64,000 nt of DNA from a virus, in the IMG/VR virus record IMGVR_UViG_3300027976_000006, positions 92,976 through 156,975 of that record; one strand, given 5' to 3'. Every line of letters begins with the position of its first letter. Position 1 is the first letter of the stretch. The translations under genes were made by a program, and so were the position numbers. This document shows positions 3,101 through 21,414 of the stretch, piece after piece. The notes beneath the pieces are model-generated. The model made no database searches, was not told where the DNA came from, and saw only the letters and a program-made list of their open reading frames with translations.

Positions 3101-3120
3101 TTTTGGCTGGAGTTTTACAA

Positions 3121-6100
3121 ATGCTTCCGTTTTCTTCTAATTTGTTTAATCCCGACGCTATGTCCTTGTTGAGTAACGTGCCACAACCGTTGCCAGAAGC
3201 TCCCGTGGTTCCATCGTTTCCAGCGGTTCCGTCGTTTCACGAATTTCATGATACTAATAAAGTTAGATCGCTCATTTACGACAAAGTGCTGAATGCGGCG
3301 CAGCAGGTGCAGCCTATCTCCAACGATCGGCACACGCTGAGGTTATCTGATATAAATTATCGAGATGGTGACAAGTTTAGTAAGCAAGATCAAAAATCTT
3401 CCATTCTCAATGGGAGGACTCAAGGGCGTAGGCTAGAAGGAACTTGGGAGCTCTTGGATAATGCGACACAGCAAGTAATAGACTCCAAGAAGTCAGTGCT
3501 GGCGACTGTTCCGCACTTGACTGATCGTGGCACGTTTATAAATAACGGTACCGAGTATATTTTACGAAATCAACAGCGGTTATTGCCAGGAGTTTATACC
3601 CGGGCAAGGAACAATGGCGAGATTGAATCGCATGTTAATGTTATGGCAGGAAAAGGCGTTTCACACCGTTATTTTTTAGACCCAGAAAAAGGTAGATTTA
3701 AACTCAAGGTAGGCCAAGCATCGGTAGGATTAACTCCTTTGTTGAAAGCTATGGGGGTTACCTCCGAGCAAGCCAAAGAAGCGTGGGGCACGGATCTATT
3801 TGCTGCCAACTATAACTCAGATGACGCTTCCGACTATACACGGCTTAAAGGTATGTTTCTTTCGTCCAAAGAATTACAAGGGCCGGAAGATCAACAGAGA
3901 CAAGCTTTGCTTGCTAAATTTTCTAAAATGGAAATGGACCCCGAAGTAACACGGCGCACGCTGGGAAAGCCTTATGCAAATATGTCATTGGACGCTGTGC
4001 TAGACATCACGAAGAAATTAATAAGTGTTAACAAAAATGAATCAGACCCTGATGACAGGGACGCGCTTCATTTTCAGCAGTTTGTCGGGCCAGAGGATTT
4101 GTTTTCAGAGCGAATCGCACGAGATAAAGGGCAGGTACGCCGTAATTTACTATGGAAAATGTCAGGAAAAGGTAATTTAAGCTCAATGCCTTCGTCCGCA
4201 TTAGACAAGCAGTTGAAAAGTGCATTGCTTAGTAGTGGGTTAGGGCAGGCAATTGAAGAAATCAACCCGACAGACCTTTACGAAAAAACAATGTCGGTTA
4301 CCCGCGTGGGCGAGGGCGGTATTTCTTCCATGGATTCTATCCCCAAAGAATCTCGAAATGTGCAATCAAGTATGCTGGGCTATATAGACCCTGTCCGTAC
4401 TCCGGAATCTGGGCGTGTGGGTGTAGACACTTATTTGGCAAGAGGTTCTCGAAAAGGAAGCGATGGAAAGCTATACGCGCAGTTTCGAGATTTACGAACT
4501 GGTGAAATGGTGTATAAAACTCCACAAGATGTGGCAAACTTAACTGTTGGATTTCCAGGAAGTCTAGAAGGGCCAGATAAGCGGGTGCCGGCAATGCGAG
4601 ACGGCAAAATGCTTCATGTTCCTAAGGATAGTATTGATCTAGAATTACCTAATATGGAAGAGGCATTCAACCCTCTTTCTAATGTTATTCCGATGAAAAG
4701 CCAGGTAAAAGGGCAAAGATTAGTAATGGCTTCTCGTATGACTACGCAAGCTTTACCTTTAGTATCGCCCGAAGCTCCTTTAGTACAGTCGGCAGTTCCC
4801 GGTACAAACGGGAAGCAAAGCTATGAAGAGTTGTATTCGCCAGGGATGGGAGCTTTGCGGGCGACACAAGCCGGTAAAGTTATGGCGGTTACTGACGAAG
4901 GGATTAAAGTGCGTAATGCGGACGGTACCGAGGAAACGCATGAGCTTTATAATAACTTCCCTTTTAATCGAAAAACTTTCTTTCAGCAGACTTCGGTAGT
5001 TAAGCCAGGCGACACTATCCAGCCAAATCAATTGTTGGCCAGTTCTAATTACACAGACAAGGTAGGAACGATGGCTTTAGGGGTAAACGCACGTACTGCT
5101 TATATCCCGTGGCAGGGCAAGAATTTTGAAGACGCGATTGTTATTTCAGATAGTTTTGCAAAGAGAACGGCTTCGTCGCATATGTACCAGCACGAGCTGG
5201 AGATTGACGACAAAACACAATTAGGTAAAAGGCAATTTATCCAAGCATTCCCGGCGACATTTAAAAAAGAAACATTAGCGACTATAGATGATCAAGGAAT
5301 GGTTAAGCCAGGTACGGTAGTTAATTTTGGTGATCCTTTGGTTCTTGGTATTACGCAAAAAGAAAATGCATATAACAAGGTGCACAAACAAGGGCAAAAG
5401 GGATTTAATAACGCAGCCGTACTTTGGGAACATCACGATAGTGGCGTTGTCACTGATGTGGTTATGGGTAAAAAAGGTCCGGTTGTTGTTGTTAAAGCTG
5501 AATCTCCAACGCAAGTCGGCGATAAACTGTCCGGTCGCTACGGGGACAAAGGCGTCATTGCTGATATCATTCACGATAATGAAATGCCACAAGGGGCGGA
5601 CGGTCAACCTTTTGAAGTGTTGCTTAATCCTCTTGGGATAATTAGTCGAACTAATCCTGCGCAAATGTCTGAATTGTTTTTAGGAAAAATAGCGGCTAAG
5701 CGGGGAACGCCGATTAAAGTAGATGATTTTGATACTAAAAAAGACATGAGCCAATGGGTGTTGCAGGAATTAGCCAAAGAAGGTTTGTCTGACTTAGAAG
5801 ATATTGTAGACCCATCTAAAGATCAAAAAATTAACAATGTGGCAACGGGTAGTCGTTTTTTTATGAAATTGCACCACACTGCTGAATCTAAAGGGCAGGG
5901 TAGAAGTGGCGGAGCTTACACTACGGAAGATGCCCCAGCTAAAGGCGGTACGGAAGGTTCTAAGCGCATAGGTTTGATGGATGCCAACGCATTGCTTTCT
6001 CACGGGGCTACGGACACGTTACAAGACATTTTCACAATACGCAGGCAAAAAAATGACCAGTATTGGATGCAATTTATGGCTGGTTACGATCCAAAAATCA

Positions 6101-7587
6101 CTACAGTTCCTTTTGCATATCAAAAATTTGTGAATCAGCTGCGCTCGGCTGGCGTTAATGTGGTCAAGCAGGGAACGCAGACTCAGATTATGGCGATGAC
6201 GGATAAGGACATTGACAGTTTAGCTGGAGACCGTGAGTTGACTAACGCAGATGGCGTAGAGTGGGGTAACCAACTAAAAGAGATCAACGGCGGACTATTC
6301 GACAAGGCTAAGACTGGAGGGCATGGCGGGACACGCTGGTCATTCATCAAACTTCATGAACCTTTGCCCAATCCTGTGATGGAAGAACCTATTAGGTCCA
6401 TGCTTGGACTGACAAAGAAAAAGTTTGAAGGTGTAATAGCGGGTACAGAATCTTTAGACAAATACGGCAGCGGTACGGCAGCGCTGCAAAAAGCATTAGA
6501 AAATTTTAATGTAGATGCGGAAATTTCTAAAGCACGCGCAGTTATTTCCGCAGGTAGAGGCTCGCAGCGAGATGAAGCAATCCGTAAACTTAGTTATGCT
6601 AAAGCGGTGCAGAAGCTTGGGTTACAGCCTAAGGACTATATGCTGACCAAGGTACCGGTTCTTCCTCCAATGTTTCGTCCTGTTAGTCTGATGAGTAATG
6701 GTATGCCTTTGGTTAACGATGCCAACCACCTGTACAAAGAGTTGTTTGAGGCTAACCAGAATTTCAAGAGAATGCAGCAAGAAGTCGGAGAAGATGCTTC
6801 TGGGACAGAACGCCTCTCTACCTACCAAGCGTTTAAAGCGGTGACTGGGCTGGGGGATCCTATTAGTGCAAAAAGCCAAGAAAAGAATGTTCGTGGTGCA
6901 TTAAAAAATGTATTTGGAGAAAGCCCTAAGTTCGGGGTGGTGCAGCGTAAGTTGATTTCTTCCACCGTTGACAATGTAGGGCGTGCTGTTATTACCCCAA
7001 ACCCATCTTTGGATATGGACTCTGTTGGTTTACCGGAGGATAAAGCATTTAAGGTTTACGAAAAGTTCGTCACCAGAAGATTGGTGCGACAAGGTATGTC
7101 GATGCTGCAGGCTCGTACCCAACTAGAAGACAAGACGCCAGTAGCCCGTAAGTTACTGGTTGAAGAAATGGAGCATAGGCCAGTGTATATTAGTCGTGCC
7201 CCTGTGTTGCATAAATTTGGGATTATGGCAATGAAGCCAAGATTGACTAAAGGAAATACATTGCAGGTAAGCCCATTAATTGTAAAAGGGTTTGGAGCTG
7301 ACTTTGACGGGGACACTATGAATTATCATGTGCCCAGCACAGAAAAAGCTAGAAAAGAGGCTTTAGATCGTTTACTTCCCAGCCGTAACCTTTTTAGTAT
7401 AGCTGACATGAAGTCGGTAATGCACGCTCCTGCTAACGAATACATTGGCGGGTTGTTTATGGGGACAGACCCATCACGTAAATCCACGCGGCCTGTCCGG
7501 ATTTTTCAAAACATACAGGATGCGAAGCGAGCACACGAAAGTGGAACTATTTCGGTCAATGACCCTGTCCGAATTTTAAATGGTTAG
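3121..7587 (+). CDS. rpoBC: Phage DNA-directed RNA polymerase, beta subunit fused to the N-terminal (catalytic) half of beta'
   Basis: Beta motifs in order: GTFINNGTE, RTPESGRVG, MASRMTTQALPL, NFEDAIVIS, GDKLSGRYGDKG, LNPLGIISRTN, MKLHH, LRSAGVNV. Then beta' motifs: GGLFD, PVLPPMFRP, VGRAVI, RAPVLH, GADFDGD (7294-7314). ATG 3121 follows GGAG; the ORF track starts at TTG 3103. Confidence 0.95.
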   Translation: MLPFSSNLFNPDAMSLLSNVPQPLPEAPVVPSFPAVPSFHEFHDTNKVRSLIYDKVLNAAQQVQPISNDRHTLRLSDINYRDGDKFSKQDQKSSILNGRTQGRRLEGTWELLDNATQQVIDSKKSVLATVPHLTDRGTFINNGTEYILRNQQRLLPGVYTRARNNGEIESHVNVMAGKGVSHRYFLDPEKGRFKLKVGQASVGLTPLLKAMGVTSEQAKEAWGTDLFAANYNSDDASDYTRLKGMFLSSKELQGPEDQQRQALLAKFSKMEMDPEVTRRTLGKPYANMSLDAVLDITKKLISVNKNESDPDDRDALHFQQFVGPEDLFSERIARDKGQVRRNLLWKMSGKGNLSSMPSSALDKQLKSALLSSGLGQAIEEINPTDLYEKTMSVTRVGEGGISSMDSIPKESRNVQSSMLGYIDPVRTPESGRVGVDTYLARGSRKGSDGKLYAQFRDLRTGEMVYKTPQDVANLTVGFPGSLEGPDKRVPAMRDGKMLHVPKDSIDLELPNMEEAFNPLSNVIPMKSQVKGQRLVMASRMTTQALPLVSPEAPLVQSAVPGTNGKQSYEELYSPGMGALRATQAGKVMAVTDEGIKVRNADGTEETHELYNNFPFNRKTFFQQTSVVKPGDTIQPNQLLASSNYTDKVGTMALGVNARTAYIPWQGKNFEDAIVISDSFAKRTASSHMYQHELEIDDKTQLGKRQFIQAFPATFKKETLATIDDQGMVKPGTVVNFGDPLVLGITQKENAYNKVHKQGQKGFNNAAVLWEHHDSGVVTDVVMGKKGPVVVVKAESPTQVGDKLSGRYGDKGVIADIIHDNEMPQGADGQPFEVLLNPLGIISRTNPAQMSELFLGKIAAKRGTPIKVDDFDTKKDMSQWVLQELAKEGLSDLEDIVDPSKDQKINNVATGSRFFMKLHHTAESKGQGRSGGAYTTEDAPAKGGTEGSKRIGLMDANALLSHGATDTLQDIFTIRRQKNDQYWMQFMAGYDPKITTVPFAYQKFVNQLRSAGVNVVKQGTQTQIMAMTDKDIDSLAGDRELTNADGVEWGNQLKEINGGLFDKAKTGGHGGTRWSFIKLHEPLPNPVMEEPIRSMLGLTKKKFEGVIAGTESLDKYGSGTAALQKALENFNVDAEISKARAVISAGRGSQRDEAIRKLSYAKAVQKLGLQPKDYMLTKVPVLPPMFRPVSLMSNGMPLVNDANHLYKELFEANQNFKRMQQEVGEDASGTERLSTYQAFKAVTGLGDPISAKSQEKNVRGALKNVFGESPKFGVVQRKLISSTVDNVGRAVITPNPSLDMDSVGLPEDKAFKVYEKFVTRRLVRQGMSMLQARTQLEDKTPVARKLLVEEMEHRPVYISRAPVLHKFGIMAMKPRLTKGNTLQVSPLIVKGFGADFDGDTMNYHVPSTEKARKEALDRLLPSRNLFSIADMKSVMHAPANEYIGGLFMGTDPSRKSTRPVRIFQNIQDAKRAHESGTISVNDPVRILNG

Positions 7588-7667
7588 GAAACTAAGTAAT
7601 ATATCTCTATCGTAGATTTTAATTAGGGTTTAGAATCACAAGGTGAGATGACACAAGGAGTATGATT

Positions 7668-8414
7668 ATGGCAGTTAATTTTGAATTGTTACGAATGGCA
7701 CGACAAAGCATAGGAAAAAAACACTTATCTAAATATGCATTCGTTGCAGCGGGTGACCCGGCTATGGGTGCTCCCCCGATGGACCCTTCTATGGGCGGTG
7801 GCGGTGCTCCCCCGATGGACCCTTATATGGGCGGTGGTGGTGCTCCCCCGATGGACCCTTCTATGGGCGGTGGCGGTGCTCCCCCGATGGACCCTTATAT
7901 GGGCGGTGGCGGTGCTCCCCCGATGGACCCTTATATGGGTGGTGGCGGTGCTCCGCCCCCAGCCGACCCGATGGCTGCAATAATGCCGATGATTCAGCAA
8001 GCGGTACAGCAGGCAATGTCCGCCAACGGCGGAGGACAAGCACAAGCAACGCCGTCTGGGCTCAGACCTAAAATCGATATCAATGTCGAAATTGTACAAA
8101 TTAAGAAAATGCTTGCCAAAATTATTGACTCACTTGGTATTCACGTGCCTGTGTCTGATATGGTGGTAACACCTGAAGATTTAAATCAAATTGCGCAAGG
8201 TGGCCCTGGCTATGCGGCGGCAACGCCCGACCAGCCGGCGGGCGGGGGTGGGCTTGGGCAGATTCAGCCTGTTTCTCCCATGAAAGCGGCAGAGGCCTGG
8301 GAAAGTGGTGCAGCTTTCAGTTTACCTTCTGATTATTACCCAGCGCAAACAGCGCATAAAAGTAAAAGTGTAGCGGAGTTGGCTACTGCTCTTTTAATGC
8401 GAAAATCTATGTAA
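7668..8414 (+). CDS. Gly/Pro/Met-rich repeat protein
   Basis: AAGGAG 7 nt before ATG 7668 (track start 7662); five GAPPMDP(S/Y)MGGG repeats; KYA and KAA motifs. Confidence 0.8.
   Translation: MAVNFELLRMARQSIGKKHLSKYAFVAAGDPAMGAPPMDPSMGGGGAPPMDPYMGGGGAPPMDPSMGGGGAPPMDPYMGGGGAPPMDPYMGGGGAPPPADPMAAIMPMIQQAVQQAMSANGGGQAQATPSGLRPKIDINVEIVQIKKMLAKIIDSLGIHVPVSDMVVTPEDLNQIAQGGPGYAAATPDQPAGGGGLGQIQPVSPMKAAEAWESGAAFSLPSDYYPAQTAHKSKSVAELATALLMRKSM
7767..7958 (+). repeat. 36-nt coding tandem repeat, 5 copies plus a partial copy
   Basis: Unit GGTGCTCCCCCGATGGACCCTT(C/A)TATGGG(C/T)GGTGG(C/T), with no spacers. Confidence 0.95.
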
Positions 8415-8426
8415 GGAGTTTATGTT

Positions 8427-8651
8427 ATGTTCATTGTGGAGGTTCTTACTACCGTAGGGAAACCTCCACTTAGGCTTCCTGCTTCTCAAGTTGTAGTGCG
8501 TATGCCGGATGGCACTCCAATTAGCGTGGCGGCTTTGTTCGGCGGGGTTACTAGCGTTTTGGTATCGCATTGTGAAGACTCTAGCTTCAATGACAATTTA
8601 CGTAAGTTAGGCATTAACGAAACCGTTATTTCTACAAAGGTACAAGTGTAA
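8427..8651 (+). CDS. Small hypothetical protein
   Basis: AAGGAG upstream; 74 aa; predicted beta-rich. Confidence 0.75.
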   Translation: MFIVEVLTTVGKPPLRLPASQVVVRMPDGTPISVAALFGGVTSVLVSHCEDSSFNDNLRKLGINETVISTKVQV

Positions 8652-8652
8652 T

Positions 8653-9228
8653 ATGGACAATTCTTTGCGCTCTTCCGACATATATTACAGAGATAGGCAA
8701 CCAATAGTTGTGCCTAAGCCTGTGCCGATGCCGACTTATCGGCAATCTTCTAACGAAAGTTTTTCCAATAATAAATATTATGCGGAGATGTCAACACCGG
8801 CTGGCACAGACGACATAGTTAAAATGCAACTGCGACCAAAAAAAGAATCGGAATTGGAGTTAGCGGATAACTGGGACGGTATAGCAACTTTTCAGAATGA
8901 ATTTAAAGAAGGTGCCACTTCTATCGTGGTAAAATCAACTGAAGCTGTAATCCTGCAGTTACAAGTTGCTGTGGATATGGCAGTCGGGCGTAACGAGTTG
9001 ACGAGAGAGCAGGTAGACTCTATAACTTTTGTAGCAACAGCTCGTGCCCCGATTTTTGCGGTACCAAAAGTGCCTCCGATTAAAGAAACAACTGTTTCTC
9101 CCAAGAGCACACCCGAGGCAGCCGATATCCTAAACGCCCCGACTAAACCGGGCAATAAAAAGGCAAAGCGGGGCATTACCCTGAAAGACATTGCAGCTGT
9201 GTTTGATGTCGACGATAGCGACGCTTAA
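8653..9228 (+). CDS. Hypothetical protein
   Basis: Starts 1 nt after the previous stop; 191 aa. Confidence 0.7.
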   Translation: MDNSLRSSDIYYRDRQPIVVPKPVPMPTYRQSSNESFSNNKYYAEMSTPAGTDDIVKMQLRPKKESELELADNWDGIATFQNEFKEGATSIVVKSTEAVILQLQVAVDMAVGRNELTREQVDSITFVATARAPIFAVPKVPPIKETTVSPKSTPEAADILNAPTKPGNKKAKRGITLKDIAAVFDVDDSDA

Positions 9229-9269
9229 AATCCAGATTTTAAATAATTTGTTCAGGGCAAAACTATTTT

Positions 9270-12200
9270 ATGTTGAACACAACCGTTGGGCAATTGTTGA
9301 TTAATGATGTACTCCCCGAAGAGATGAGAGACTCGCACCGTGTGTTAGATAAGAAGGGGTTGCAATCTTTATTACAACAAGTGGCGCAACAATACCCAGA
9401 ACGCTATCGAGATATTTCTTTTCAGCTAAGCCAGCTAGGTCAAAGCATGGCGCAGCAGCAGGGTGGTATGTCGTTTGGTCTGCGACATCTGCAAGTAAGT
9501 AAAGCGGCTATGGCATCTCGGCAGAAAGTTAAAGTTTCACTTGCTAATATACTAGCGGACGACACATTGACGGACCGCCAACGAAATGACCAGATTATTC
9601 TTGCTGTTGGCAAGGAAAGTCCCGAGCAACAAAAGCAAGTTCTGGCAGAAGCATTAAAAGACAAAAACCCGCTTGGGCTGCAGGTGATGTCGGGAACCCG
9701 CGGTAAGTCGATGAACCTAACTAGTCTGCTGGGTTCGGATATGTTGTATTCTGACCAGCGTGACGAAGTGATTCCGATTCCTGTATTGCACAGTTATAGC
9801 GAGGGGTTGTCACCTGCGGAATATTGGGCTGGAACTTACGGGGCGCGCAAAGGGATTATGGCAACTAAGTTTGCCACACAAGAAGCTGGTTTTTTTAACA
9901 AGCAGCTAAACCAAACTAGTCATCGTCTTGTGGTTACGGGAGAGGATGCCGAGGAGGACAAAGACGCACCTATTCGTGGCTTGGTGGTAGACACCGAAGA
10001 TGCGGATAACGAAGGTGCTTTATTGGCCCGTGACGCAGGTCCTTACGCACGCAATACCCCACTTACCCCGAAAATACTAAACCATTTACAACGGCTAGGG
10101 CACCCTAGAATTTTGGTACGCTCCCCGCTAGTTGGTGGTTCTCCCGAGGGTGGTGTTTATTCTAGAGATGTAGGTATTAGGGAAACAGGAAGGTTGCCGG
10201 GTATTGGGGAGCAAGTTGGGTTGCAGGCTGCACACGCTCTAAGTGAACCGATCAGCCAAGGGCAACTATCTGCAAAGCATTCTGGTGGGGTTGCGGGGCA
10301 AGAAAAAGCTGTAAGCGGGTTTCAATATTTAAACCAATTAGTGCAGGTTCCTAAGAAAATGCAAGGCGGGGCAGCCCATTCCCTTACAGATGGCACGGTG
10401 CAGCGGATTGAGGCAGCTCCAGCGGGTGGTAGCTATGTGACCATCGGGGATAAAAGACATTATGTAGGAGTAGGGTATGAGCTTAAAGTTAAAAAAGGAG
10501 ACGAAGTAGAAGCTGGTGATGTAATTAGTACGGGGATTCCTAACCCCGCAACTATTACAGAGCATAAAGGAATTGGGGAAGGTCGGCGATATTTCGTTAA
10601 CGAATTTCGTAAGGCTATGGGTGACAGCGGAATGTTCGGACATCGGCGTAATGTTGAAGTGTTGGCAAGGGGGCTTATCAACCACGTAAGGTTGACGGAA
10701 GAAACTGACGATAACGTTCCTGATGATATTGTACCTTATTCAACGCTTGAGCACACTTATAAGCCGCGGGCAGACTATCAGCGATTAACGCCCAAGCGTG
10801 CGTTAGGTCAATATCTTGAACGACCTGTGCTGCATTACACCATAGGCACCAAGATTCAACCCTCGATGCTTAAGAATTTTGAAGAATTTAAAGTTAATGA
10901 AATTCCAGTGCACAAGAACCCTCCTCCATTTGTGCCACAGATGGTACGTGGGTTGTATCAAATGCAGCACGACCCCGATTGGATGACACAAATGTATGGG
11001 TCTGGGCTGAAGAAAAGTTTTTTAGACTCGGTTACGCATGGTGCAGTTAGCGAAGAGCGAGGTACAAGCTTTGTGCCGAGTTTGGCCTTGGGGCTTAATT
11101 TTGGTGAAGGCAGTGATCGTGCCGTAATAAAGCCGAAGTCTGGGGCAACTCCTCCTTTTTTTGGTGGCAGTTTTACTCCGGGTCAAACTAAATTTGCAGC
11201 AGATACTCCGAATGTCTCTGCCCCGCCTTCTGCTTCTAAACCGCCTGCTGTTTCTACCCCACCTAGAACTTTAGCTCCGGGCACAAACATTATGCCGACA
11301 GCACCGACACCTGTAAAAGCACCTACACCTGCTCCGACATACTCGAACTCTAACGCAAATCAATTTAGTAATTTAATGCATAGTAATTCTCCCTTTGCTC
11401 AACAAACCGGGCAGGCGTTGAATCAAATGAATCCATTACACGCAATGATGATGTTGGGGGGGATGGCTAATAATAATAATAATAATAATATGTCTAGTAA
11501 TATAATGAATGGGTTTGGCGGGCAAAATAATGGTGGAATGTTTAATATGTTTAATGGGGGGCAAAATAATAACGGGCAAAATAGCGGAGGAATGTTCAAT
11601 AATATGTTTAATATGCCCAGCTCGTACGATTCGGAATCTAACATGCCTGCTGAGCCTGTAACTGAAAGCCCATATGTCTCGGCTCAAGGTCCAGTAAGTA
11701 ATACTGCCTCTGGTGCTGCGTATGACACCGCAGCAAAGGGGGTAGGTGCGGGATATTCAGCAGTAGCAAATAAATTTTCAAGTCCTCCTATCTCATCTAA
11801 TATTATGCCTCCGCCGTTGCCTAGAACACCTCCTCCGATACCCGCTAAGCTTCCTCCGATACCCGGAATGACTCCTCCTCCGATACCAGGAATGACTCCT
11901 CTTCCGCTGCCTGGGGTTAAACCTCTGGCTGGTATGCTCAGTAAAGCCACTTCAATAGGTGGTACAGGTTTAAAGTTAGTAAGTAAAGCGGCACTGCCAC
12001 TATCTGTGGCTCTGGACACAATAAACGTCGGGCAAGACATATACAACAAAGGTTGGGATAATACAACTAACGACGCAGCACAAAAATGGCGAGATATACT
12101 TTCGGCCAAGGATGGGCTACATACCTTGTATCAAGCTCCATTACAAGTTCTAAACCCTGTGGCTAATGCACAATTAATTGCTGGCGGGGCAACACAGACT

Positions 12201-12890
12201 GCCCAGATGGTAGGAGAAAAAGCACAAGAAGGGCTAACCCATGCGTATGACAAAGTAACGGGTACGGATACTCGTTCTCGTAATTTTGCAGAGGACAAGA
12301 CACAAGTTAAAAACATGGAGTTAGAAAATCAAAGAGATTTAGAAGGACAAAGAGCACTAAATAAGCCGAATCCAAATCTACCCCCAGATAGGTTAGCTTT
12401 AAATACGCAAGAAAATGCCCGTCTTGATGCTAAAATACAAGATTCTAAAACGAGGCAAGGAAATACGGCGGATGAAACTGCAAACTGGAGGCTAGGCCAG
12501 CAAAATTGGTTTGGCAGTGGTGGCCACAAATTTAGGGATGCTATGCAAAATTCGATTACTAATTCAGCTGCCGAATTGCAGGGTTTAAATAACGGAGGCA
12601 CACTAGATGCAGGGCAGCAGGCTAGGAAAGAACAGTTAGAAAACGGACAAGCACAGCGTAAACAAATGATCGGTACTTACGATCGGGAGGGCGGGGCATC
12701 TGGTAAAGGTTTGTTTAGTACAGATATGCGCAACCGGGTTAGCAGTCTTAAGGAAAATATTGTGCAGGTCGGTTCACAACTTAGAGACCCCAACCTTCCT
12801 CCGGACCAAAAAGCAAAATTAGAGGCACAATTAAAAAATAATAATGAAATGTTAGAAGAATATCGAGGATGGGCAGAAAGTTCTAAATAA
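9270..12890 (+). CDS. rpoC: Phage RNA polymerase beta' C-terminal half (bridge helix, trigger loop) with a long C-terminal extension
   Basis: TTVGQLLIN, SGTRGK, bridge helix YSEGLSPAEYWAGTYGARKG, trigger loop GEQVGLQAAHALSEPISQGQLSAKHSGG, RRNVEVLARGL. RNAP similarity ends near aa 610-640; the rest is Pro/Asn-rich and then helical. Confidence 0.92.
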   Translation: MLNTTVGQLLINDVLPEEMRDSHRVLDKKGLQSLLQQVAQQYPERYRDISFQLSQLGQSMAQQQGGMSFGLRHLQVSKAAMASRQKVKVSLANILADDTLTDRQRNDQIILAVGKESPEQQKQVLAEALKDKNPLGLQVMSGTRGKSMNLTSLLGSDMLYSDQRDEVIPIPVLHSYSEGLSPAEYWAGTYGARKGIMATKFATQEAGFFNKQLNQTSHRLVVTGEDAEEDKDAPIRGLVVDTEDADNEGALLARDAGPYARNTPLTPKILNHLQRLGHPRILVRSPLVGGSPEGGVYSRDVGIRETGRLPGIGEQVGLQAAHALSEPISQGQLSAKHSGGVAGQEKAVSGFQYLNQLVQVPKKMQGGAAHSLTDGTVQRIEAAPAGGSYVTIGDKRHYVGVGYELKVKKGDEVEAGDVISTGIPNPATITEHKGIGEGRRYFVNEFRKAMGDSGMFGHRRNVEVLARGLINHVRLTEETDDNVPDDIVPYSTLEHTYKPRADYQRLTPKRALGQYLERPVLHYTIGTKIQPSMLKNFEEFKVNEIPVHKNPPPFVPQMVRGLYQMQHDPDWMTQMYGSGLKKSFLDSVTHGAVSEERGTSFVPSLALGLNFGEGSDRAVIKPKSGATPPFFGGSFTPGQTKFAADTPNVSAPPSASKPPAVSTPPRTLAPGTNIMPTAPTPVKAPTPAPTYSNSNANQFSNLMHSNSPFAQQTGQALNQMNPLHAMMMLGGMANNNNNNNMSSNIMNGFGGQNNGGMFNMFNGGQNNNGQNSGGMFNNMFNMPSSYDSESNMPAEPVTESPYVSAQGPVSNTASGAAYDTAAKGVGAGYSAVANKFSSPPISSNIMPPPLPRTPPPIPAKLPPIPGMTPPPIPGMTPLPLPGVKPLAGMLSKATSIGGTGLKLVSKAALPLSVALDTINVGQDIYNKGWDNTTNDAAQKWRDILSAKDGLHTLYQAPLQVLNPVANAQLIAGGATQTAQMVGEKAQEGLTHAYDKVTGTDTRSRNFAEDKTQVKNMELENQRDLEGQRALNKPNPNLPPDRLALNTQENARLDAKIQDSKTRQGNTADETANWRLGQQNWFGSGGHKFRDAMQNSITNSAAELQGLNNGGTLDAGQQARKEQLENGQAQRKQMIGTYDREGGASGKGLFSTDMRNRVSSLKENIVQVGSQLRDPNLPPDQKAKLEAQLKNNNEMLEEYRGWAESSK
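11469..11615 (+). repeat. (AAT)7 and GGQNN/MFN low-complexity coding repeats
   Basis: Encodes NNNNNNN and repeated GGQNN and GGMFN units. Confidence 0.85.
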
Positions 12891-12980
12891 TATTAATAAG
12901 GTGTTTGTATTGCGGTATAAGCCACTATATGGCTAAACTACTTTAATAACTTTAAGCTTCAGATAACTTAGGAGGACTCT

Positions 12981-13250
12981 ATGGGGAATAAACCGCTGCT
13001 TGGCGGGCTTGACATAAAGTATGCTGCCGCATATCTGCTGCCCCCATCTACCTCGGAGTTCGGTGAAGATAAAAAGAAAAAGAAAAAGAAAATACAAGCA
13101 GAGGACGAGGGTGCTGCTGTGGAGAAAATGGCAGCCACCTACGGGGATGCCATTGTTGGCGCACGCTTATCCTTGGTTAGACAGCAGATGCGTTCTGGCG
13201 ATCTAGGCGGCGGGTGGCATCCAGATAATCAAATTAATCCGATTAAGTAG
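12981..13250 (+). CDS. Small protein with a poly-Lys tract
   Basis: AGGAGG upstream; K7 tract between IKYAA and EKMAA. Confidence 0.7.
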   Translation: MGNKPLLGGLDIKYAAAYLLPPSTSEFGEDKKKKKKKIQAEDEGAAVEKMAATYGDAIVGARLSLVRQQMRSGDLGGGWHPDNQINPIK

Positions 13251-13270
13251 CACAATCAAGGAATGTCCTT

Positions 13271-15745
13271 ATGGAAATGCCTAAGCAGAGTAATTCAATA
13301 AAGAACGCCAGCATAGGCGGTAAAGGCGGGGAGACGGAATTTGCCCAGGCTTTTTCCAGCTTAGCCTATGCATACCTAAAAGACAAGGCACCACGACTTC
13401 TTGACTATATGTTGGGTTTTCAGCTAATTGATCGCAATGAAGATAATACTAAAGCAGTTGGTGTTTTTGGTTTCCAGCTCGACAAACAGTGGCTTTATGC
13501 CCCTGTATTTTTTTTAAACGGCGATTTAAAAGGGCATGAGTTGCTATACGTAAAAAACAATGATTCATTTGTTCCGATGAAAGAAAACTGGATTAACTAT
13601 CTGATGAGTCGAAAGCCTCATATTTTAGGCGAACCTTCAGTAAACAAATTGCAAGAGCTTGGTGGGATTGCTCCTGACATTAATTCGTTGTCCTTGTCAC
13701 CTACCGGCAACAAGAACGCAAGTGACATATATTGGCTTCGTCCAGTGCTACCCATGCTGGCAGCTTTTAAAGTAAAACTTGCTAACTCCTTGTATCGAGG
13801 AGCGGGCAATCGGCAGCTTGATCAAAAGGCGATTGTTCGATCGCCATTTACGGCTGCATTAGCCAAGACTGCTTCAAATCTGGATTTTAACCAAGTTCTG
13901 CCTAAAAGTCTCTTACTGCTTGAAGCTGCCTATGACTTAGCCGAGCGGTACCCTGCCATCAAAAAAGCTACTTGTGATTTTTACGGAGCTAACTGTTTTT
14001 CACGCTGGGGGAAAGAATTTAGAAGCAATACGATCAAGCAAGCTAGCAGCATTCTTTATTCACCTACCACGGTCACACTTACATCTACTAATTTGTTAAG
14101 CGGGGCAGCACAATCGAGGCCTACCATCGATCACATTAAAGAAGGCAAGCTACAAGTCGTTACTTCCGTAACTTCGGATCAAGGCGGGCTGGATACTAAA
14201 GACCAAGAGAACTTATTGCAGGGCAAGATAGTTATTAAGGATAGGCGAGAAGATGCAGAAGTAAGTAAAGTCTATGCAACAGAAAACGAGATTAGACTTT
14301 TCAATCCTTCTGAAACCGAACTGTACTCTGTACTGGAGAAGTCTGGAGAATTTAGCAAAATGCTGGTGGTGTTAAACGGGATTAGCAGCCGCGGCGCTGA
14401 ATATATGACCACAGTAATACGCATAGACGATAAGGATAGTCAGAACAAAAGTTGGTTAAACGCAGACAATACGGCAGTTTTTGCTACGCAAGTTTCCATG
14501 GACAAAAATGATTGGAAAGATTGGTTCGATGGTTTATCCTCCGAGACTGACTTAGCCGAGGAGGCTGAATATATTGCGATAAACGCCACCCATTCCGCCA
14601 CTGCTCCTTTTCATGTACTCACCGATATGGGAGATGGGCAATATAAAGTAGATTTTCGCATAAGTAAAGATTATCTATCTTCTCGTGACTCGCTGCTGCC
14701 ACAGGTACAATCGCGCTACGCTAGCGGGGGCGACAACCGCACTCGCGGTGTGACTCTAATTGTGGGTAAACAGGATAAACCAGGGCTTAGACTTCGACCC
14801 CTGTCCAGCGAACTGTGCGTGCCTGCATCTTTTAAATTTATTAAACTGTCTGATGGTTCTTCCTCTGGCTTTTTTGGTAGTTGCGGTTGTTCTCCTTTGG
14901 ACGAAGATTCAAACCCAATTAAGTTAGGTAGCTTAAGCGACATTCAACGATTGCTGGTTGAAAAAACAGCCAGGCTTAAAGTGTTCAATAACGGAACTGA
15001 CGTCTACCTGGATTCGGTTATTGGCTCTGTGCAGTTAAGTAAAAAGGCAGCATTATGCCAGCTGGTCGCCACACATGGCCTACGCGAAAAAGCAGCCATG
15101 GACATGCTGAAAAAAGCGGAGCAGAAAGGACATGCTGTTTATCGTGTTCGATATGCCCCAGGTTATGGGGCCGAAAAGCAAGCTGCTCCAAATACCAGTG
15201 TGCTAGCTGGTGGCCCTACTTTCCCGCTTGATACTGAATCAAATAACGATGGTAGTGAGACTTATGGCCCTAGCACTTCTGTCCGAACCCAGACTAGTAC
15301 GGAAAAAACTTCGCCCATACCTTCATTAAGCGGGCGTAACACAAATAGGTCCAAGTGGGACAACTGGCAAAACTTCGAGGCTAAGGATTTTAAGCAAAAT
15401 CTGCAGGCGGCACAAGTCGCGGGCAAGGAAGGGCAGAAAGAAGTGTTTGATGTTTCGATGATGGCTGGTATGTTAAAAACAGTGCGACAAGATTCAATTG
15501 TAGACCGCCACTTAGGTGATTTAATGTCGGCGTTAGATTCGCTAGGTCGTTTGATAATGAATTTCTACTGGCACCAGGAAGAATTTGAAGATCGGTATGG
15601 CAAAAGTGATCTTCCGGAGTTGGAAGATAGTTTGCGTAACGCTTTTGAATCTCTTGGGGATATCACACTTTTCTTAAAAGAAAAAACCATAGAATCGTCG
15701 GCGGATAAAGGTGATATTAACTTAGATGAAGTTTCAAGGAACTAA
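13271..15745 (+). CDS. Large hypothetical head-region protein
   Basis: 824 aa; KNAS (twice), KLAN, KTAS, KQAS, EKTA and EKQAA motifs; no family recognised. Confidence 0.8.
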   Translation: MEMPKQSNSIKNASIGGKGGETEFAQAFSSLAYAYLKDKAPRLLDYMLGFQLIDRNEDNTKAVGVFGFQLDKQWLYAPVFFLNGDLKGHELLYVKNNDSFVPMKENWINYLMSRKPHILGEPSVNKLQELGGIAPDINSLSLSPTGNKNASDIYWLRPVLPMLAAFKVKLANSLYRGAGNRQLDQKAIVRSPFTAALAKTASNLDFNQVLPKSLLLLEAAYDLAERYPAIKKATCDFYGANCFSRWGKEFRSNTIKQASSILYSPTTVTLTSTNLLSGAAQSRPTIDHIKEGKLQVVTSVTSDQGGLDTKDQENLLQGKIVIKDRREDAEVSKVYATENEIRLFNPSETELYSVLEKSGEFSKMLVVLNGISSRGAEYMTTVIRIDDKDSQNKSWLNADNTAVFATQVSMDKNDWKDWFDGLSSETDLAEEAEYIAINATHSATAPFHVLTDMGDGQYKVDFRISKDYLSSRDSLLPQVQSRYASGGDNRTRGVTLIVGKQDKPGLRLRPLSSELCVPASFKFIKLSDGSSSGFFGSCGCSPLDEDSNPIKLGSLSDIQRLLVEKTARLKVFNNGTDVYLDSVIGSVQLSKKAALCQLVATHGLREKAAMDMLKKAEQKGHAVYRVRYAPGYGAEKQAAPNTSVLAGGPTFPLDTESNNDGSETYGPSTSVRTQTSTEKTSPIPSLSGRNTNRSKWDNWQNFEAKDFKQNLQAAQVAGKEGQKEVFDVSMMAGMLKTVRQDSIVDRHLGDLMSALDSLGRLIMNFYWHQEEFEDRYGKSDLPELEDSLRNAFESLGDITLFLKEKTIESSADKGDINLDEVSRN

Positions 15746-15748
15746 ACT

Positions 15749-16432
15749 ATGTCTTCAGAATATTCTCGTGTTGTTGCGTTTTACGGTAGCTCCGCTGCCG
15801 TTACAAGCCTAGAACTTCCTGCTTTTACGAATGGATCGCTGGAGCGTGTTATTATTATTCAAACTAATCCTTCGGTGGCGGTTGGATCTGGTTCTTTTAA
15901 AATCTATGACCGCAAAGCTGCTTGTATAGGCTTGACTGATCTAAATGTAAAAGCTTCGGGGACTGTTTCGAGTGTATCGACTAGCTCTACCGGTGTAATC
16001 ACTTTAGTGTCTAACATTTCGCATAATTTAGGCATAGCTGATACATTTTTTATTAAGGATTGTGCAGATCCCGCATACAACCTTGACTATCAAGTTACGG
16101 CTATAAACTCCAACACTTCAGTGACGATTTCTCCTGTAGGGGGGACACCAGCTAATTCTTCGACAGCTAGTAGCGGAGTTTGGCAAACATACCCGTTCGA
16201 TGCCCGAACTTCTCCGGCTACTAACTTAATTTATTCTGGAACGATAACCGCTGGAGTTACTTTTCAACAGTTCAGCTTAGGGCGAGCTTATGAAAATAAA
16301 GATAACCAAGACATTAACCTACGGTGTCGGCACACGGGTCTTTGGTTGGAATTCACGCCCGCGACTCTATCGCCCGTAGCCACATTAAACTGGGAAATCG
16401 CTTACACCTGCAAAAAAAATAATGTCGATTAG
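15749..16432 (+). CDS. Beta-rich putative virion structural protein
   Basis: Ser/Thr-rich. The segment SHNLGIADTFFIKD...YNLDYQVTAI resembles the HGL..GD.V.I...YN...VT module common in phage structural proteins. Confidence 0.6.
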   Translation: MSSEYSRVVAFYGSSAAVTSLELPAFTNGSLERVIIIQTNPSVAVGSGSFKIYDRKAACIGLTDLNVKASGTVSSVSTSSTGVITLVSNISHNLGIADTFFIKDCADPAYNLDYQVTAINSNTSVTISPVGGTPANSSTASSGVWQTYPFDARTSPATNLIYSGTITAGVTFQQFSLGRAYENKDNQDINLRCRHTGLWLEFTPATLSPVATLNWEIAYTCKKNNVD

Positions 16433-16438
16433 GAGTCA

Positions 16439-17461
16439 TTGTTGAAAAGTTACAAGGATGTGCGTCTAGCTGACCCGTTTCTTCGCCCTTACTGGAGGCA
16501 CGAGCGTGTACTTCGCATGCTTCGCAGCGTTCCACCGGAGCGTTGTAAACGATTTGATGATCGCTGGATTCAAGAATATAAAAAGTTTTTGTTTTTTTGG
16601 AATAAAGGCGAAGCCCAGCGGGAACGACTTCTCTATGAAAATCCAGGCTTGTACTTCGCCTATAATTTATACGACAGGCTGGCGATTGAACCCGAGCTGA
16701 CCTTGATGATTGAAGCCAGGCTGTTAGCTGGGTCTTCTGTCCAAAGCATTGCTAATGACTGCAAGACCATACCAGAAACCATTGAATGGTACGAACGACT
16801 ATTTTTTAATGTGTCTGATTTCTTGACTCACCACGATTGGATCGTAAAAAATGTATTGTTGCCCGCGTCTGACCGTTTTGTAGAACAACTACCTCCGGAC
16901 AGTGCTGGGTCAACGCAGCCGGCTATGTCTTCTGGGCTAATGCGCACACAATTAGATTTACCTTTGAAATTCTTTGCGTATTTTGGTGGTCCTTTAGTTT
17001 GCGATGTCATGATTAGCGGGTTTCGACGCAACAATCATGTATTAACCTCAGATAATTTGTCTGAATTTTTTAACAATCAATTTGCACTTCAAGTGCAGCG
17101 GCGCAGTGCGCAAGCCGCAGGACAGTTTGAGGTCAACAAGTATAATGTATTGGAACTTCTTAACACGCATATCAGGTTGATGGAATTGCATAAATCCGGC
17201 AAGAGTCAAGAAGTGCGACATAACGAATTTGAAAAAAATGTAAGTGCAATGATGCTGGAAATTCCTTGGAGTGTAGGTAAAAACGGAGAACAGCTATATC
17301 AAGGAACCGCTGTTGGTAGGTACGATAAAGGGCCAGTTGAGTTGAATTCAGAAGAAGCTATTTTAATCGCCGCTGGAACTAACTTACCCGTACTGGAACA
17401 TGACGAAGGTATCGATGTTTACAAACGGGGGGAGACGGATACACATGCAACCATTGAATAA
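16439..17461 (+). CDS. Hypothetical protein with a possible helix-turn-helix
   Basis: AGGAG before a TTG start; IEARLLAGSSVQSIANDCKTIPETIEWYERLFF looks HTH-like. Confidence 0.65.
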   Translation: MLKSYKDVRLADPFLRPYWRHERVLRMLRSVPPERCKRFDDRWIQEYKKFLFFWNKGEAQRERLLYENPGLYFAYNLYDRLAIEPELTLMIEARLLAGSSVQSIANDCKTIPETIEWYERLFFNVSDFLTHHDWIVKNVLLPASDRFVEQLPPDSAGSTQPAMSSGLMRTQLDLPLKFFAYFGGPLVCDVMISGFRRNNHVLTSDNLSEFFNNQFALQVQRRSAQAAGQFEVNKYNVLELLNTHIRLMELHKSGKSQEVRHNEFEKNVSAMMLEIPWSVGKNGEQLYQGTAVGRYDKGPVELNSEEAILIAAGTNLPVLEHDEGIDVYKRGETDTHATIE

Positions 17462-18824: not shown

Positions 18825-19923
18825 TATTACTTATGAGCAAGGGTTGCAGTTACTGGCGGCTCGAAAGCAGGCTTTTGACTCGGGGCGTATCCGTCGTATG
18901 TCTAAAGAGGCAATGGCTACTTCCTTTTATTTGCGCGACATCGGTACAGATTTTTTAGGGAAGGTAGCAGAATCTGGTTTGCTCGATTCTTTAAAATCCG
19001 GATTTGGAAGTTTAGGATCTATGGATGCTTCTACGCGTAATGTGCTGTTATCGGGGTTAGCCGGTGCTGGCGTTGGGGCAGGCACAAATGCGGCATCCTC
19101 CCTACTGAAAGGCGAAGAAGGGGTAGGCTGGAAAGCGTTAACTGGTGGGTTGGCCGGTGGGGCTGTTGGGGGCGGGATTGGTTTGGCGCTTAACCCGGAT
19201 ATACTAAGCAAATTTGTTGACAAAAATCAAAACGGGCCACCCGATTCTACCCCTCCAAATAGAAATTCGCAAGTAGCTGCGGCTATAAAAAGCAGATCCC
19301 CAGCAGAACAGTTAGCGGAAATAGACAAGTTACAAGGTGTGGCAGACAGCAGTATGCCAGAAATTAAAAGCTACGCGGCACATGGGGCAAACGTGGCGGC
19401 GGGTGGCGCTGCTGGTGCCTATGTGGCAACTAGAGCTACATATAATCCTGATGACATTGCACATAAGCTACGCACCGAGCTACACATGGCAGACCCTAGC
19501 AACACTCACACCTACGAGCGGTTTCATCGTGGAATGACAGCCCCAGACCTCGGCGTAATTGACGACGTAGCCCGCGCCAAACTTAGAGATGACATGCTTA
19601 AAATGACTCGCGATCAGTTTAGAGATGCATATGTGCCTAAATCTCGGTTTGGGCGTATTCCTTCTACTTTTGCGAGTAATTTACATACAGCTGCCCCTAA
19701 CATGGCTGATGCGATTCTTAAAAACAATACTGTAACTGGCGGTATGTTTACTGGTGCGGGCAAAATACGATCGGGCAAGGCAGGTATACTGGCGGCACTA
19801 GCCGGACTCGTTGCGGCAGGGGCTGGGACTATACGCCACAACTACAATCAAAATAATGCAGAACGCAGCAATGCACAAGAAACATTAAAATCGTTAGCTG
19901 GTCTTACTAAGCAACAGCAGTAA
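18802..19923 (+). CDS. Glycine-zipper protein, possible ejection protein
   Basis: GLAGAGVGAG, GGLAGGAVGGGIGL, AAGGAAGA and GILAALAGLVAAGAG segments after GKVAE. Confidence 0.7.
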   Translation: MAALSLSSITYEQGLQLLAARKQAFDSGRIRRMSKEAMATSFYLRDIGTDFLGKVAESGLLDSLKSGFGSLGSMDASTRNVLLSGLAGAGVGAGTNAASSLLKGEEGVGWKALTGGLAGGAVGGGIGLALNPDILSKFVDKNQNGPPDSTPPNRNSQVAAAIKSRSPAEQLAEIDKLQGVADSSMPEIKSYAAHGANVAAGGAAGAYVATRATYNPDDIAHKLRTELHMADPSNTHTYERFHRGMTAPDLGVIDDVARAKLRDDMLKMTRDQFRDAYVPKSRFGRIPSTFASNLHTAAPNMADAILKNNTVTGGMFTGAGKIRSGKAGILAALAGLVAAGAGTIRHNYNQNNAERSNAQETLKSLAGLTKQQQ

Positions 19924-19935
19924 AGGAGCAAAGCC

Positions 19936-21414
19936 ATGGCGTTAATTAAACTTGTTTCTCCTGCTGGTTGGGACTTTGATCAGCAAATTGTTTCTCCGAT
20001 TAAAGTGAGTAGCCGTGGATTGATTGGTAACGATCGTCAAGAGTTTTTAAAACGGGCTAGTCATTCTTTTTTGGACCAGTTAGATAATGTTAAATTTGCC
20101 TCAGACGAAGTTCCTGTGCATTTAATCGCATTAGGTGCAAGTGAAGCTTATGGCCCCAATAGAAACGGTGATGGGTTTAAAGAAGCCACTTGTCGCGAGC
20201 ATCATGACACCTTTGTTAAATTTGCCAAATTTTTTCGCAATCATAAAAACAAGGCCGAGCGAGGCGATCCTTTCTATGGTGTGGTTAAAGCTTCTGCTTA
20301 TAACGAAGATATGCGACGGGTAGAATTGCTTTGTGCTTTAAACGCAAGCAAAGCAGCCGCGGATCGGAATGGTGGTTTTATTGCAGATACCGAGTTAGAA
20401 AAGATTGCGAAAGGCGAAGACATAGGCGTAAGCATGGCGTGCCGTGTTTCCCATGACGTTTGTTCTTTTTGCAAGCACGCAGCTAAAACACGAGACGAAT
20501 ACTGTACAAGAGAAAAGTGTGCAGCGGGTGGGTGCAAGGAAAATCTCACTAAGCTAGTAAAAGTCGGTAATGATGTGCATCATTTGCATGTCGACAATCC
20601 CAACCCAGTTTGGTTTGACATCAGCCGAGTTTTTCGCCCCGCGGATCGTATTGCTTATGGCACCCGTGCAGATTACCTAACCAAAGCAGCCGCAGATTCC
20701 GGCATATTCGAACTGCAGGATTACATCAAATTAGCTTCGGCTTCTACTGCTCCTCTGGCTGTCATTTTGTACCAAGCGGGGCACCACGGTTTATGGTCGG
20801 AAAAAAATACTGCCCAAGTTAAATTAGGATATGGGCTTGCTGCTCTTGAAAAATTTGCAGAAATGCTGGATGCTAATACTTACCGAGCCGTAGTAACCTC
20901 TGCTTTTCCTATAGAAAGGCTGGCAAAATTAGGTTCGGCACACTGTGATAAGCAGTTAGCCGCGTTGGCAGATAATAAAATATTTTTAACATTGTATGAT
21001 TATGCACGATTGGCAGGACAAGAAAAGTACATGAAAGCTGCAGCCGCGATACTCCCCGAAATATATACGCTAATGGCCGAGGATGAATCCTTGCCTTTAG
21101 CAATTGAGCGCGGGGTCGGCTCAATTGGCGATAAAACAGCTAATGAAAGTGCTAGGGCGTTTGCTGCCACGTTGACGGCGAGTCATTCGTTTCACCGAGT
21201 GGCAGCGGAAGACCGAAACCTTTTGAGCTGTATACGTGGGCAGGCTGCTCCTACGATCTGGCAAAAGGCAGCTGCATATAATTTGGAAGGCGAAAGCCTA
21301 GCCAAGGAGTATGCAATGTATAAGCTAGCAGGGTTATGGCGATTGGCTGCACTAGACAACGACTTTACTTCAACAGTCAAGTTAAGTCTTAAGCAGAATA
21401 GAATATTTAACTAG
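19936..21414 (+). CDS. Putative prohead (capsid maturation) protease
   Basis: NRNGDGF, FRNH (candidate catalytic His), GVSMAC (candidate Ser), CSFC Cys cluster, FDISRVFRPAD. Lies directly before the scaffold and capsid genes. Confidence 0.75.
   Translation: MALIKLVSPAGWDFDQQIVSPIKVSSRGLIGNDRQEFLKRASHSFLDQLDNVKFASDEVPVHLIALGASEAYGPNRNGDGFKEATCREHHDTFVKFAKFFRNHKNKAERGDPFYGVVKASAYNEDMRRVELLCALNASKAAADRNGGFIADTELEKIAKGEDIGVSMACRVSHDVCSFCKHAAKTRDEYCTREKCAAGGCKENLTKLVKVGNDVHHLHVDNPNPVWFDISRVFRPADRIAYGTRADYLTKAAADSGIFELQDYIKLASASTAPLAVILYQAGHHGLWSEKNTAQVKLGYGLAALEKFAEMLDANTYRAVVTSAFPIERLAKLGSAHCDKQLAALADNKIFLTLYDYARLAGQEKYMKAAAAILPEIYTLMAEDESLPLAIERGVGSIGDKTANESARAFAATLTASHSFHRVAAEDRNLLSCIRGQAAPTIWQKAAAYNLEGESLAKEYAMYKLAGLWRLAALDNDFTSTVKLSLKQNRIFN

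Follow-up and report, generated by a model that had tools for sequence, protein, structure and literature searches.

Why does the C-terminal half of the beta' subunit (beta'C) of a phage RNA polymerase (RNAP) end in a long appendage that is absent from its nearest cultured relative? The question is raised by an open reading frame (ORF) of 1206 amino acids (aa) at positions 9270-12890, plus strand, of a 64,000-nucleotide (nt) stretch of DNA from an uncultured freshwater phage (positions 92,976 to 156,975 of IMG/VR record IMGVR_UViG_3300027976_000006), referred to here as the window. An earlier interpretation of these letters, made without database searches and called the sequence-only reading below, placed the start of the appendage at a K641-F-A-A motif and proposed a cleavable polyprotein whose tail is released by the head protease, after targeting the polymerase to the prohead or acting as an ejection or membrane pilot. 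The present analysis points to a polyprotein that would be cut at K641-F-A|A within the prohead to free a cargo protein, internal or ejected, linked to the RNAP; we put the probability of this reading at roughly 0.55. The window is the final 64 kb of a single-contig phage record of 156,975 bp with a CheckV completeness of 76%, and 104 of its 108 ORFs of at least 150 aa lie on the plus strand.

A natural gene fusion at the end of beta'C

9270..11198, plus strand: RNAP beta'C part of the putative precursor (residues 1-643 if cut after A643), from PF04998, phrog_25354, homology to phages Arash and D181, and a ratio of nonsynonymous to synonymous substitution rates (dN/dS) of 0.04-0.09
11190..11201, plus strand: seam K641-F642-A643-A644, fusion junction and candidate protease site, from the gene boundary in the split relative L006 and the presence of K-x-A in 15 of 16 fused sequences

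The PF04998 model (Rpb1 domain 5) matches residues 179-364 of the protein with an E value of 1.2e-18, above the curated cut-off, which places it among beta'C subunits, and phrog_25354 matches residues 26-495. In the phage collection, 20 records match the 1206-aa protein, all over less than 80% of its length; the best of these, Salmonella phage Arash and three Vibrio phages, match residues 5-616 only. Alignments by tblastn to Arash and Vibrio phage D181 likewise end at residues 614-616. The beta'C proteins of these two phages measure 606 aa (Arash gp216) and 609 aa (D181_0271), and their C-termini, ...GGDFGNGHNGRY and ...GSSFGEGTGGRY, stand opposite window residues ~603-620. By both measures the RNAP homology stops near residue 616-620, shortly before K641, as had been read from the sequence.

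The clearest view of the junction comes from a split relative, the metagenome contig L006. Its 5'-open beta'C frame ends in ...KPKPTMFFGGKFNVGSK-TAG (FFGGKFNVGSK-stop), and 2 nt past the TAG an ATG in another frame starts a 616-aa tail gene, MDQAAKPPQPGAVPGGSGRSVAPTNIMP... (MDQAAK...), which is followed by an 837-aa homolog of window ORF 13271-15745. The L006 gene boundary aligns with K641|F642 of the window protein, where the sequence reads ...PPFFGGSFTPGQTK|FAADTPNV..., within the seam-spanning stretch ...GQTKFAADTPNV.... The sequence-only reading asked whether the tail is a separate gene in relatives; in some it is, as the split genes of L006 and seven standalone proteins show.

An assembly or frameshift artefact that joined two genes is a highly improbable account of this ORF. 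Its metagenomic origin is the one general point in favor of such an error, and nothing specific was found. The frame is unbroken from 9270 to 12890, and contigs from three sequencing runs of three studies (X1, X2 and X3; two freshwater, one estuary) cross 10700-12900 with 0 differences and 0 gaps, while a fourth run, X4, covers this interval piecewise; any single run among the four may be the source sample, but not all of them. Because the X1-X3 contigs are identical here, there is no stop near 11190, and the frame runs through 11190-11200 as first described. Fifteen further fused homologs were found at 37-93% identity, and the fused ORF recurs in the same gene order in relatives L003 (1310 aa) and L011 (1202 aa). 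Against L011 and L003, respectively, dN/dS is 0.09 and 0.04 in the RNAP core, 0.51 and 0.21 in the disordered linker, and 0.45 and 0.14 in the C-terminal domain (C-domain) of the tail; values below 1 throughout the tail indicate a constrained coding sequence under purifying selection, more relaxed than the RNAP core. Finally, the L006 beta'C and tail genes lie in different frames, so that a single missed stop cannot yield the fusion. The 1206-aa ORF is confirmed as a natural gene fusion.

Scanning of 7400-13400 for promoters and terminators gave counts not above those of shuffled sequence, with none at the seam. The L011 contig (79,124 bp), from a near-identical phage with 89% identity in the tail C-domain and an unchanged gene order, sits in a metagenome-assembled genome labelled Gemmataceae bacterium; this points either to an error in binning or, tentatively, to a planctomycete host.

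Conservation of the seam

11157..11174, plus strand: FFGGSF motif, residues 630-635, in the C-terminal extension of beta'C, shared with tail-bearing relatives

K641-F-A-A is the sole K-x-A-[AS] in the 1206-aa protein and lies within a Pro-rich low-complexity stretch. The sequence-only reading asked whether homologs keep K-x-A at the domain boundary, and 15 of the 16 fused sequences do so despite diverged flanks; P0046 has K-A-G. A cut after K-x-A would leave a tail starting with A-D (M-D in P0002), matching the M-D start of the standalone forms. Shortly before the seam, a [FW]FGG motif was identified by eye in 12 of the 16 fused forms, and in L006 it forms the extreme C-terminus of beta'C (MFFGGKFNVGSK-stop). 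Among the records examined, FFGG was seen only in tail-bearing relatives and is absent from the beta'C C-termini of Arash and D181; in the whole genome of the window phage it occurs once.

K-x-A-[A/S] in the head module

If the seam is a processing site, its motif might be expected in other substrates of the same protease. K-x-A-[AS] was counted in 52 window ORFs, where 51 sites were observed against 19.4 expected (z 7.2). The head-module ORFs at 12981-25242 (4021 aa) hold 35 of them against 5.4 +/- 2.5 expected (z 11.8), the upstream ORFs 4 against 3.8 (z 0.09), and the downstream ORFs for the virion tail and baseplate 12 against 9.8 (z 0.69); twelve control motifs gave z values of -0.9 to 2.3 in the head-module ORFs. 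Within the window, the enrichment is specific to the head module. It includes the homolog of the major capsid protein, assigned by tblastn to Arash gp226 and a weak phrog_2522 match, which has K-L-A-S at residues 32-35. The head-module sites are conserved in position in L003, L005 and L006 (52-89% identity) with the K-x-A core mostly retained, and the residue that follows varies in these relatives (A, S, N, G, E, V or K). Since the core is kept and the next residue is variable, seams with other next residues could still serve as sites. The head genes of Arash and Vibrio D181 are likewise rich in K-x-A-[AS]. K641-F-A-A combines two properties looked for in a substrate, the shared head motif and an exposed position.

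The motif was noted in the head modules of the window, L003, L005, L006, L007 and L002. Site numbers are highest in head-module proteins of 492 aa (nine), 417 aa (six), 824 aa (six) and 474 aa (four), and such many-site proteins are probably scaffold or core proteins degraded at maturation. The 824-aa ORF (13271-15745) lies directly past the tail gene, in the expected portal slot, and gave no sequence match in Pfam, PHROGs or PDB; three relatives keep its sites at residues 148 and 199, and L003 alone that at 256. Two small proteins encoded upstream of the polymerase genes resemble capsid-targeting leaders of the T4 type: ORF 1915-2289 begins MATSLIKFA|S, with the motif at residues 7-10, and ORF 1489-1899 has K-M-A-A at residues 30-33.

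A candidate prohead protease

19936..21414, plus strand: candidate prohead protease, 492 aa, from an AlphaFold 2 (AF2) fold match to T4 gp21

After the capsid protein, the product of ORF 19936-21414 shows the highest conservation in the head module. It shares 36% identity with Arash gp222; at least 880 relatives were found in the databases and no family annotation, and residues H62, H90, H103 and S166 are invariant in its alignment. In its AF2 model, with a mean predicted local distance difference test (pLDDT) score of 74.5, residues 17-234 superpose on T4 gp21 (5jbl_A) with a Z score of 9.0 and a root-mean-square deviation of 3.3 Å over 142 of 165 residues. The varicella-zoster protease (1vzv_A) ranks second at Z 6.8, and only one of the 48,161 chains searched reaches Z >= 8. 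Foldseek also gives 5jbl_A the highest probability (0.66), at an E value of 0.5. No sequence-level match to the T4-type protease family PF03420 was found in the genome. Assemblins cut after Ala and before Ser, a specificity that fits K-x-A|S/A. On the basis of this model, the ORF likely encodes a prohead protease with the gp21/assemblin fold. The protein further contains an invariant Cys cluster (C176, C179, C190, C195 and C200) and a helical C-terminal half with several K-x-A-[AS] sites.

The tail as a second protein module

11199..11909, plus strand: disordered linker, residues 644-880, of variable length, with P40 N33 S25 A24 G21 M18 among its 237 residues
11283..11297, plus strand: first [ST]-N-I-M-P motif, TNIMP, residues 672-676, by regular expression
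~11418-11624, plus strand: Asn/Gly/Met/Phe tract, residues ~717-785, with N7 at 734, by composition
11796-11810, plus strand: second copy, SNIMP, residues 843-847, by regular expression
11832-11915, plus strand: PPIPGMT repeats, residues 855-882, ~3 units
11910..12887, plus strand: conserved C-domain, residues 881-1206, with 40 profile relatives and an all-alpha AF2 model
12471..12545, plus strand: most conserved loop of the tail, DETANW...GGHKFRDAM, residues 1068-1092, from the 18-sequence alignment A3

Counted from K641, the appendage is 566 aa long (residues 641-1206) and consists of a Pro/Asn/Gly/Met-rich disordered stretch followed by a helical C-domain; every feature of it described in the sequence-only reading was recovered. 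The linker is poorly alignable between lineages, and the Asn/Gly/Met/Phe tract is restricted to close relatives of the window protein. The N-I-M-P motif is more widespread: N[ILV]MP was detected by regular expression in nine of the 16 fused forms, variants were seen by eye in P0036, and all seven standalone proteins have N-I-M-P or a close variant within their first 21-45 residues. No further occurrence was found in the 157-kb genome. An internal translation start at the Met of N-I-M-P was considered and discarded, since 21-45 residues precede the motif in the standalone proteins.

An appendage that remains on beta'C and works with the active enzyme, the seam K-x-A being a binding motif, is an unlikely alternative to cleavage. 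It might act as a factor-recruiting hub (through N-I-M-P and FG-like motifs, loosely like the C-terminal domain (CTD) of Pol II), as a condensate, or as a tether to the entry site or membrane. The long linker, low in complexity and dotted with conserved short motifs, would suit such a role, the Asn/Gly/Met/Phe tract calls to mind cohesive FG-type sequence, and just three of the 16 seams have the strict four-residue motif. There are also precedents in two reports: the virion RNAP (vRNAP) beta subunit of SPN3US keeps a region that corresponds to the propeptide of a relative (PMC5694885), and the virion RNAP of phage P23-45 is permanently joined to its tape measure protein (10.1101/2022.12.01.518664). 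Against a permanent appendage, the tail is produced as its own polypeptide in the split relatives, which shows that a covalent link is not required. No heptad or other regular CTD-like repeats were found in the tail, just the ~3 PPIPGMT-like units and the two N-I-M-P motifs; the Asn/Gly/Met/Phe tract does not extend past the close relatives; and the position of the seam is precisely that at which a head-specific motif would part the two natural proteins.

The C-domain is the conserved part of the tail. Its AF2 model (residues 881-1206) is all-alpha, with pLDDT ~85-95 over residues 1000-1206, and the helical bundle is preceded by a moderately hydrophobic G/A/P segment, GGTGLKLVSKAALPLSVALDTINVG, at residues 897-921. 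Residues D188, T190, W193 and D210 (domain numbering) are invariant in alignment A3. A search with residues 641-1206 returned five fused relatives and one 845-aa protein lacking the RNAP part, and among 1.84 billion representative proteins a C-domain profile picked up 40 relatives (E <= 1e-3), 22 of them at E <= 1e-30. The set P0001-P0046 comprises 14 proteins fused to the RNAP core, seven standalone, and 25 fragments or unclassifiable sequences; the seven complete standalone proteins measure 616-845 aa and all start with M-D. No tail homolog was detected when the complete records of Arash and Vibrio D181 were searched by profile. Metagenome loci were scanned with the four-sequence alignment A5, and a viral contig scan with the standalone protein P0006 gave 0 confirmed loci. 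The fused relative P0024 has an extra domain of ~170 residues directly past the seam (...AGNYRKGHVSINGLDITIENPVGSYRSG...).

The tail resembles no characterized family in the databases searched. Pfam (E <= 10) and PHROGs returned nothing usable for it; Pfam gave no match for the linker and, for the C-domain, two coiled-coil matches only, at chance level and below the cut-off (E 0.027 and 0.037). The C-domain model had no match at E <= 0.001 in Foldseek searches of PDB and BFVD. VIA-align gave a best Z of 8.8, from two-helix hairpins only and under the meaningful level for helical models, and the best score in the ESM Atlas was 0.85, to unnamed viral clusters only. The tail is a second, independently conserved protein module.

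Hydropathy was examined with respect to the proposed membrane pilot. The 19-residue maximum is 1.18 in the window tail and 0.74-1.68 across 22 homologs, lying ~290-325 residues from the C-terminal end, in the G/A/P segment, in 16 of the 22 and reaching a transmembrane-like value in one only. In the window tail, which contains no clear transmembrane segment, the hydropathy is too weak to support a transmembrane pilot.

The history of the fusion bears on a further alternative, in which the tail is simply the next head-internal protein of the operon, not specifically linked to the polymerase, and its fusion does no harm, as the maturation protease would part the products in any case. This neutral origin seems unlikely. 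It would agree with the position of the gene where the RNAP genes give way to the head module, and with the fact that fused and split forms are both viable with one or two state changes in the tree: one fused/split change suffices in the C-domain tree (support 60/40), and none of 500 label shuffles gave so low a number. Set against it are the adjacency of the tail to beta'C in every context seen (window, L003, L011 and L006), the fused forms among the deepest-branching members of the C-domain tree (its deepest branch, under a midpoint root only, is a fused one), and, among the records examined, the restriction of the FFGG extension of beta'C to those with a tail module.

Proposed processing of the precursor

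In the reading that we favor, residues 1-640 are the C-terminal half of beta' of the sole multisubunit RNAP of the phage, and residues ~644-1206 a second protein, encoded in sister phages by the gene directly downstream of beta'C and laid out as a short N-terminal N-I-M-P module, a long disordered linker and a helical C-domain. The precursor would be incorporated into the prohead along with the polymerase, where the gp21/assemblin-fold candidate (ORF 19936-21414) would cut K641-F-A|A-D, yielding beta'C ending in ...FFGGSFTPGQTKFA and a 563-aa Cys-free tail protein starting with AD.... The latter would be internal or ejected cargo held 1:1 with the polymerase, a ratio ensured by fusion or, in split phages, by docking, for which the FFGG peptide is a candidate site; it would act at, or just after, genome delivery. 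The tail and the polymerase would belong to the head-internal, probably ejected proteins. Cys is absent from the 1206-aa ORF, from the partner subunit beta-beta'N and from 18 of the 20 tail homologs checked, against a genome background of 1.26%; a sigma-like ORF and a 1730-aa ORF described below also have none.

The proposal of the sequence-only reading that a head protease releases the tail from a cleavable polyprotein thus fared well in part. It gained sequence-level support from the coincidence of the seam with a gene boundary, the K-x-A in 15 of 16 fused forms, the head-module motif and the gp21/assemblin-fold candidate. The role that it gave the tail in targeting the polymerase to the prohead fared less well: mass spectrometry of Arash virions, as presented in PMC10585845, placed beta and beta' among the most abundant signals, and the apparent presence of these subunits in virions of a phage with no tail homolog argues against an obligatory targeting role.

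Several observations weigh against cleavage at the seam or against the cargo role. The residue after the seam K-x-A is A or S in three of the 16 fused forms, the others having E, M, V, Q, T or I. The seam of L003 is K-L-A-M, and its only strict site lies 270 residues further, at residue 928; in P0003 a strict site lies just ahead of FFGG. The cut point may therefore vary by lineage, or the seam K-x-A may serve another function such as docking. The protease was assigned by fold only, at a modest Z of 9.0 and a Foldseek E of 0.5, and its ORF has no Pfam, PHROG or PDB-sequence match (a profile search of PDB gave chance matches only). Disordered regions are generally Cys-poor, which weakens the argument from the Cys-free tail. 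The lack of a tail in Arash also implies that the tail is dispensable for RNAP packaging in the wider clade. As for the Arash virion data themselves, 116 of 272 proteins were called virion proteins in PMC10585845, a proportion that makes the purity of the preparation doubtful.

What the tail might do upon delivery can be sketched, as a speculation to which we give little chance. As a polymerase-tethered delivery module, it could interact with the host envelope, or set up a compartment at the entry site, through its hydrophobic G/A/P segment and bundle, while the linker and N-I-M-P/FFGG hold the Cys-free polymerase at the incoming DNA end, so that the first genes are transcribed during entry. 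If true, this would be an independently evolved myovirus counterpart of the pore-tethered RNAP proposed for P23-45.

The polymerase partner and other genes of the window

3103..7587, plus strand: partner subunit, fused RNAP beta and beta'N, 1494 aa, 0 Cys, from PF00562, PF00623, PF04997 and PF04565

The 157-kb record (CheckV 76% complete) contains a single PF00562 locus and a single PF04998 ORF, and no second, non-virion RNAP set of the phiKZ type was found in it. Three genes (7662-8414, 8427-8651 and 8653-9228) occupy the split between beta-beta'N and beta'C. The same slot in L003 and L011 holds ORFs of 244 and 237 aa and of 189 and 191 aa, respectively; the 74-aa gene of that slot is under the ORF-size cut-off used for these two contigs. 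The product of 7662-8414, between the polymerase genes, is a Cys-free protein of 250 aa in which GGGGAPPMDP[S/Y]M is repeated five times in tandem; it has no family match. The distant fused relatives P0036 and P0039 bear two intein-like insertions in the beta'C core, which start with C and end in ...HN or SN (by eye); both are without FFGG and retain K-E-A at the seam.

Two ORFs further downstream deserve mention. ORF 45794-46594, among the virion tail and baseplate genes, encodes a Cys-free protein of 266 aa that resembles a sigma factor (phrog_351, E 1.5e-9). ORF 37275-42467 encodes 1730 aa with 0 Cys, no family match and six K-x-A-[AS] sites (residues 504, 914, 1112, 1275, 1382 and 1439), and may be another cargo polyprotein.

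Significance

A search of the literature, supplementary material aside, found no description of this fusion. As far as its sequence goes, it appears to be a new form: a whole, independently conserved protein placed on the C-terminus of beta'C at a K-x-A seam, in phages that are not jumbo phages and have a single RNAP. It bears on the open question of how large polymerases of several chains enter the phage head and later pass through a narrow tail. The lineage offers a natural experiment, in which the partner is either fused to beta'C or encoded beside it, the seam motif and, on the polymerase side, FFGG being conserved, as well as a concrete candidate pair of substrate and protease, K-x-A|A/S and ORF 19936-21414. 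The tail is itself a candidate polymerase partner without known relatives.

Comparison with known systems

The RNAP of Arash (gp206 and gp216) is the nearest cultured relative of the window enzyme, at 26-30% identity. The two phages share the beta-beta'N plus beta'C layout, the position of these genes next to the head genes, and head genes dense in K-x-A-[AS]. They differ in that the Arash beta'C ends at 606 aa, with no FFGG extension or tail, and is followed by a helicase gene.

Proteolytic release of functions delivered as one chain is described for the polyvalent proteins of phages and conjugative elements in PMC5512222. These carry an embedded peptidase and many effector domains; the window protein, in contrast, has two modules, and a separate head protease is proposed. 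No embedded peptidase or multiple effector domains were found in the tail by Pfam at E <= 10 or by fold searches. A covalent link between an RNAP and a non-polymerase protein is found in Thermus phage P23-45, in which, according to the part of 10.1101/2022.12.01.518664 available, a single-chain two-barrel virion RNAP forms the N-terminus of a 5,002-residue tape measure protein. The authors propose that this fusion places the RNAP at the DNA entry pore. The partner differs from that of the window protein, being a tape measure, and no protease seam is described in that part of the report.

Comparison with T4 concerns the processing itself. The candidate protease has the gp21 fold, and short N-terminal leaders that end in the motif, such as MATSLIKFA|S of ORF 1915-2289, recall those of T4. 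In T4, gp21 cuts after Glu in L/I-x-E, targeting peptides are N-terminal and 10-20 residues long, and the cut cargo is injected with the DNA; to our knowledge, T4 packages no RNAP. Both the Glu-specific L/I-x-E site and the N-terminal position and 10-20-residue length of the T4 leaders differ from the K-x-A seam of the window protein. The T4 prohead core, with its gp21 protease and the capsid-targeting sequences of the internal proteins and Alt, is outlined in PMC5694885.

The same paper deals with the giant phages related to phiKZ, such as 201phi2-1 and SPN3US, which carry a multisubunit vRNAP in the head and cut their head proteins at a shared motif (PMC5694885). The vRNAP beta of 201phi2-1 loses an N-terminal propeptide of 275 residues that SPN3US retains as a region of the protein, and the portal of these phages has a long propeptide with several cleavage sites, which recalls sites 148, 199 and 256 of the window's 824-aa ORF. 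The window phage departs from this group in its genome of ~157 kb (at 76% CheckV completeness), below jumbo size, its single RNAP set and the fusion of beta to beta'N. The motif also differs, K-x-A-[A/S] as against A/S/G-x-E, as does the appended part, which in the window is a C-terminal, independently conserved protein of 563 aa as against a propeptide. If the chain is indeed cut at the seam, the processing of cargo by head proteases would occur outside the jumbo phages as well, and would involve a whole C-terminal protein in addition to N-terminal propeptides.

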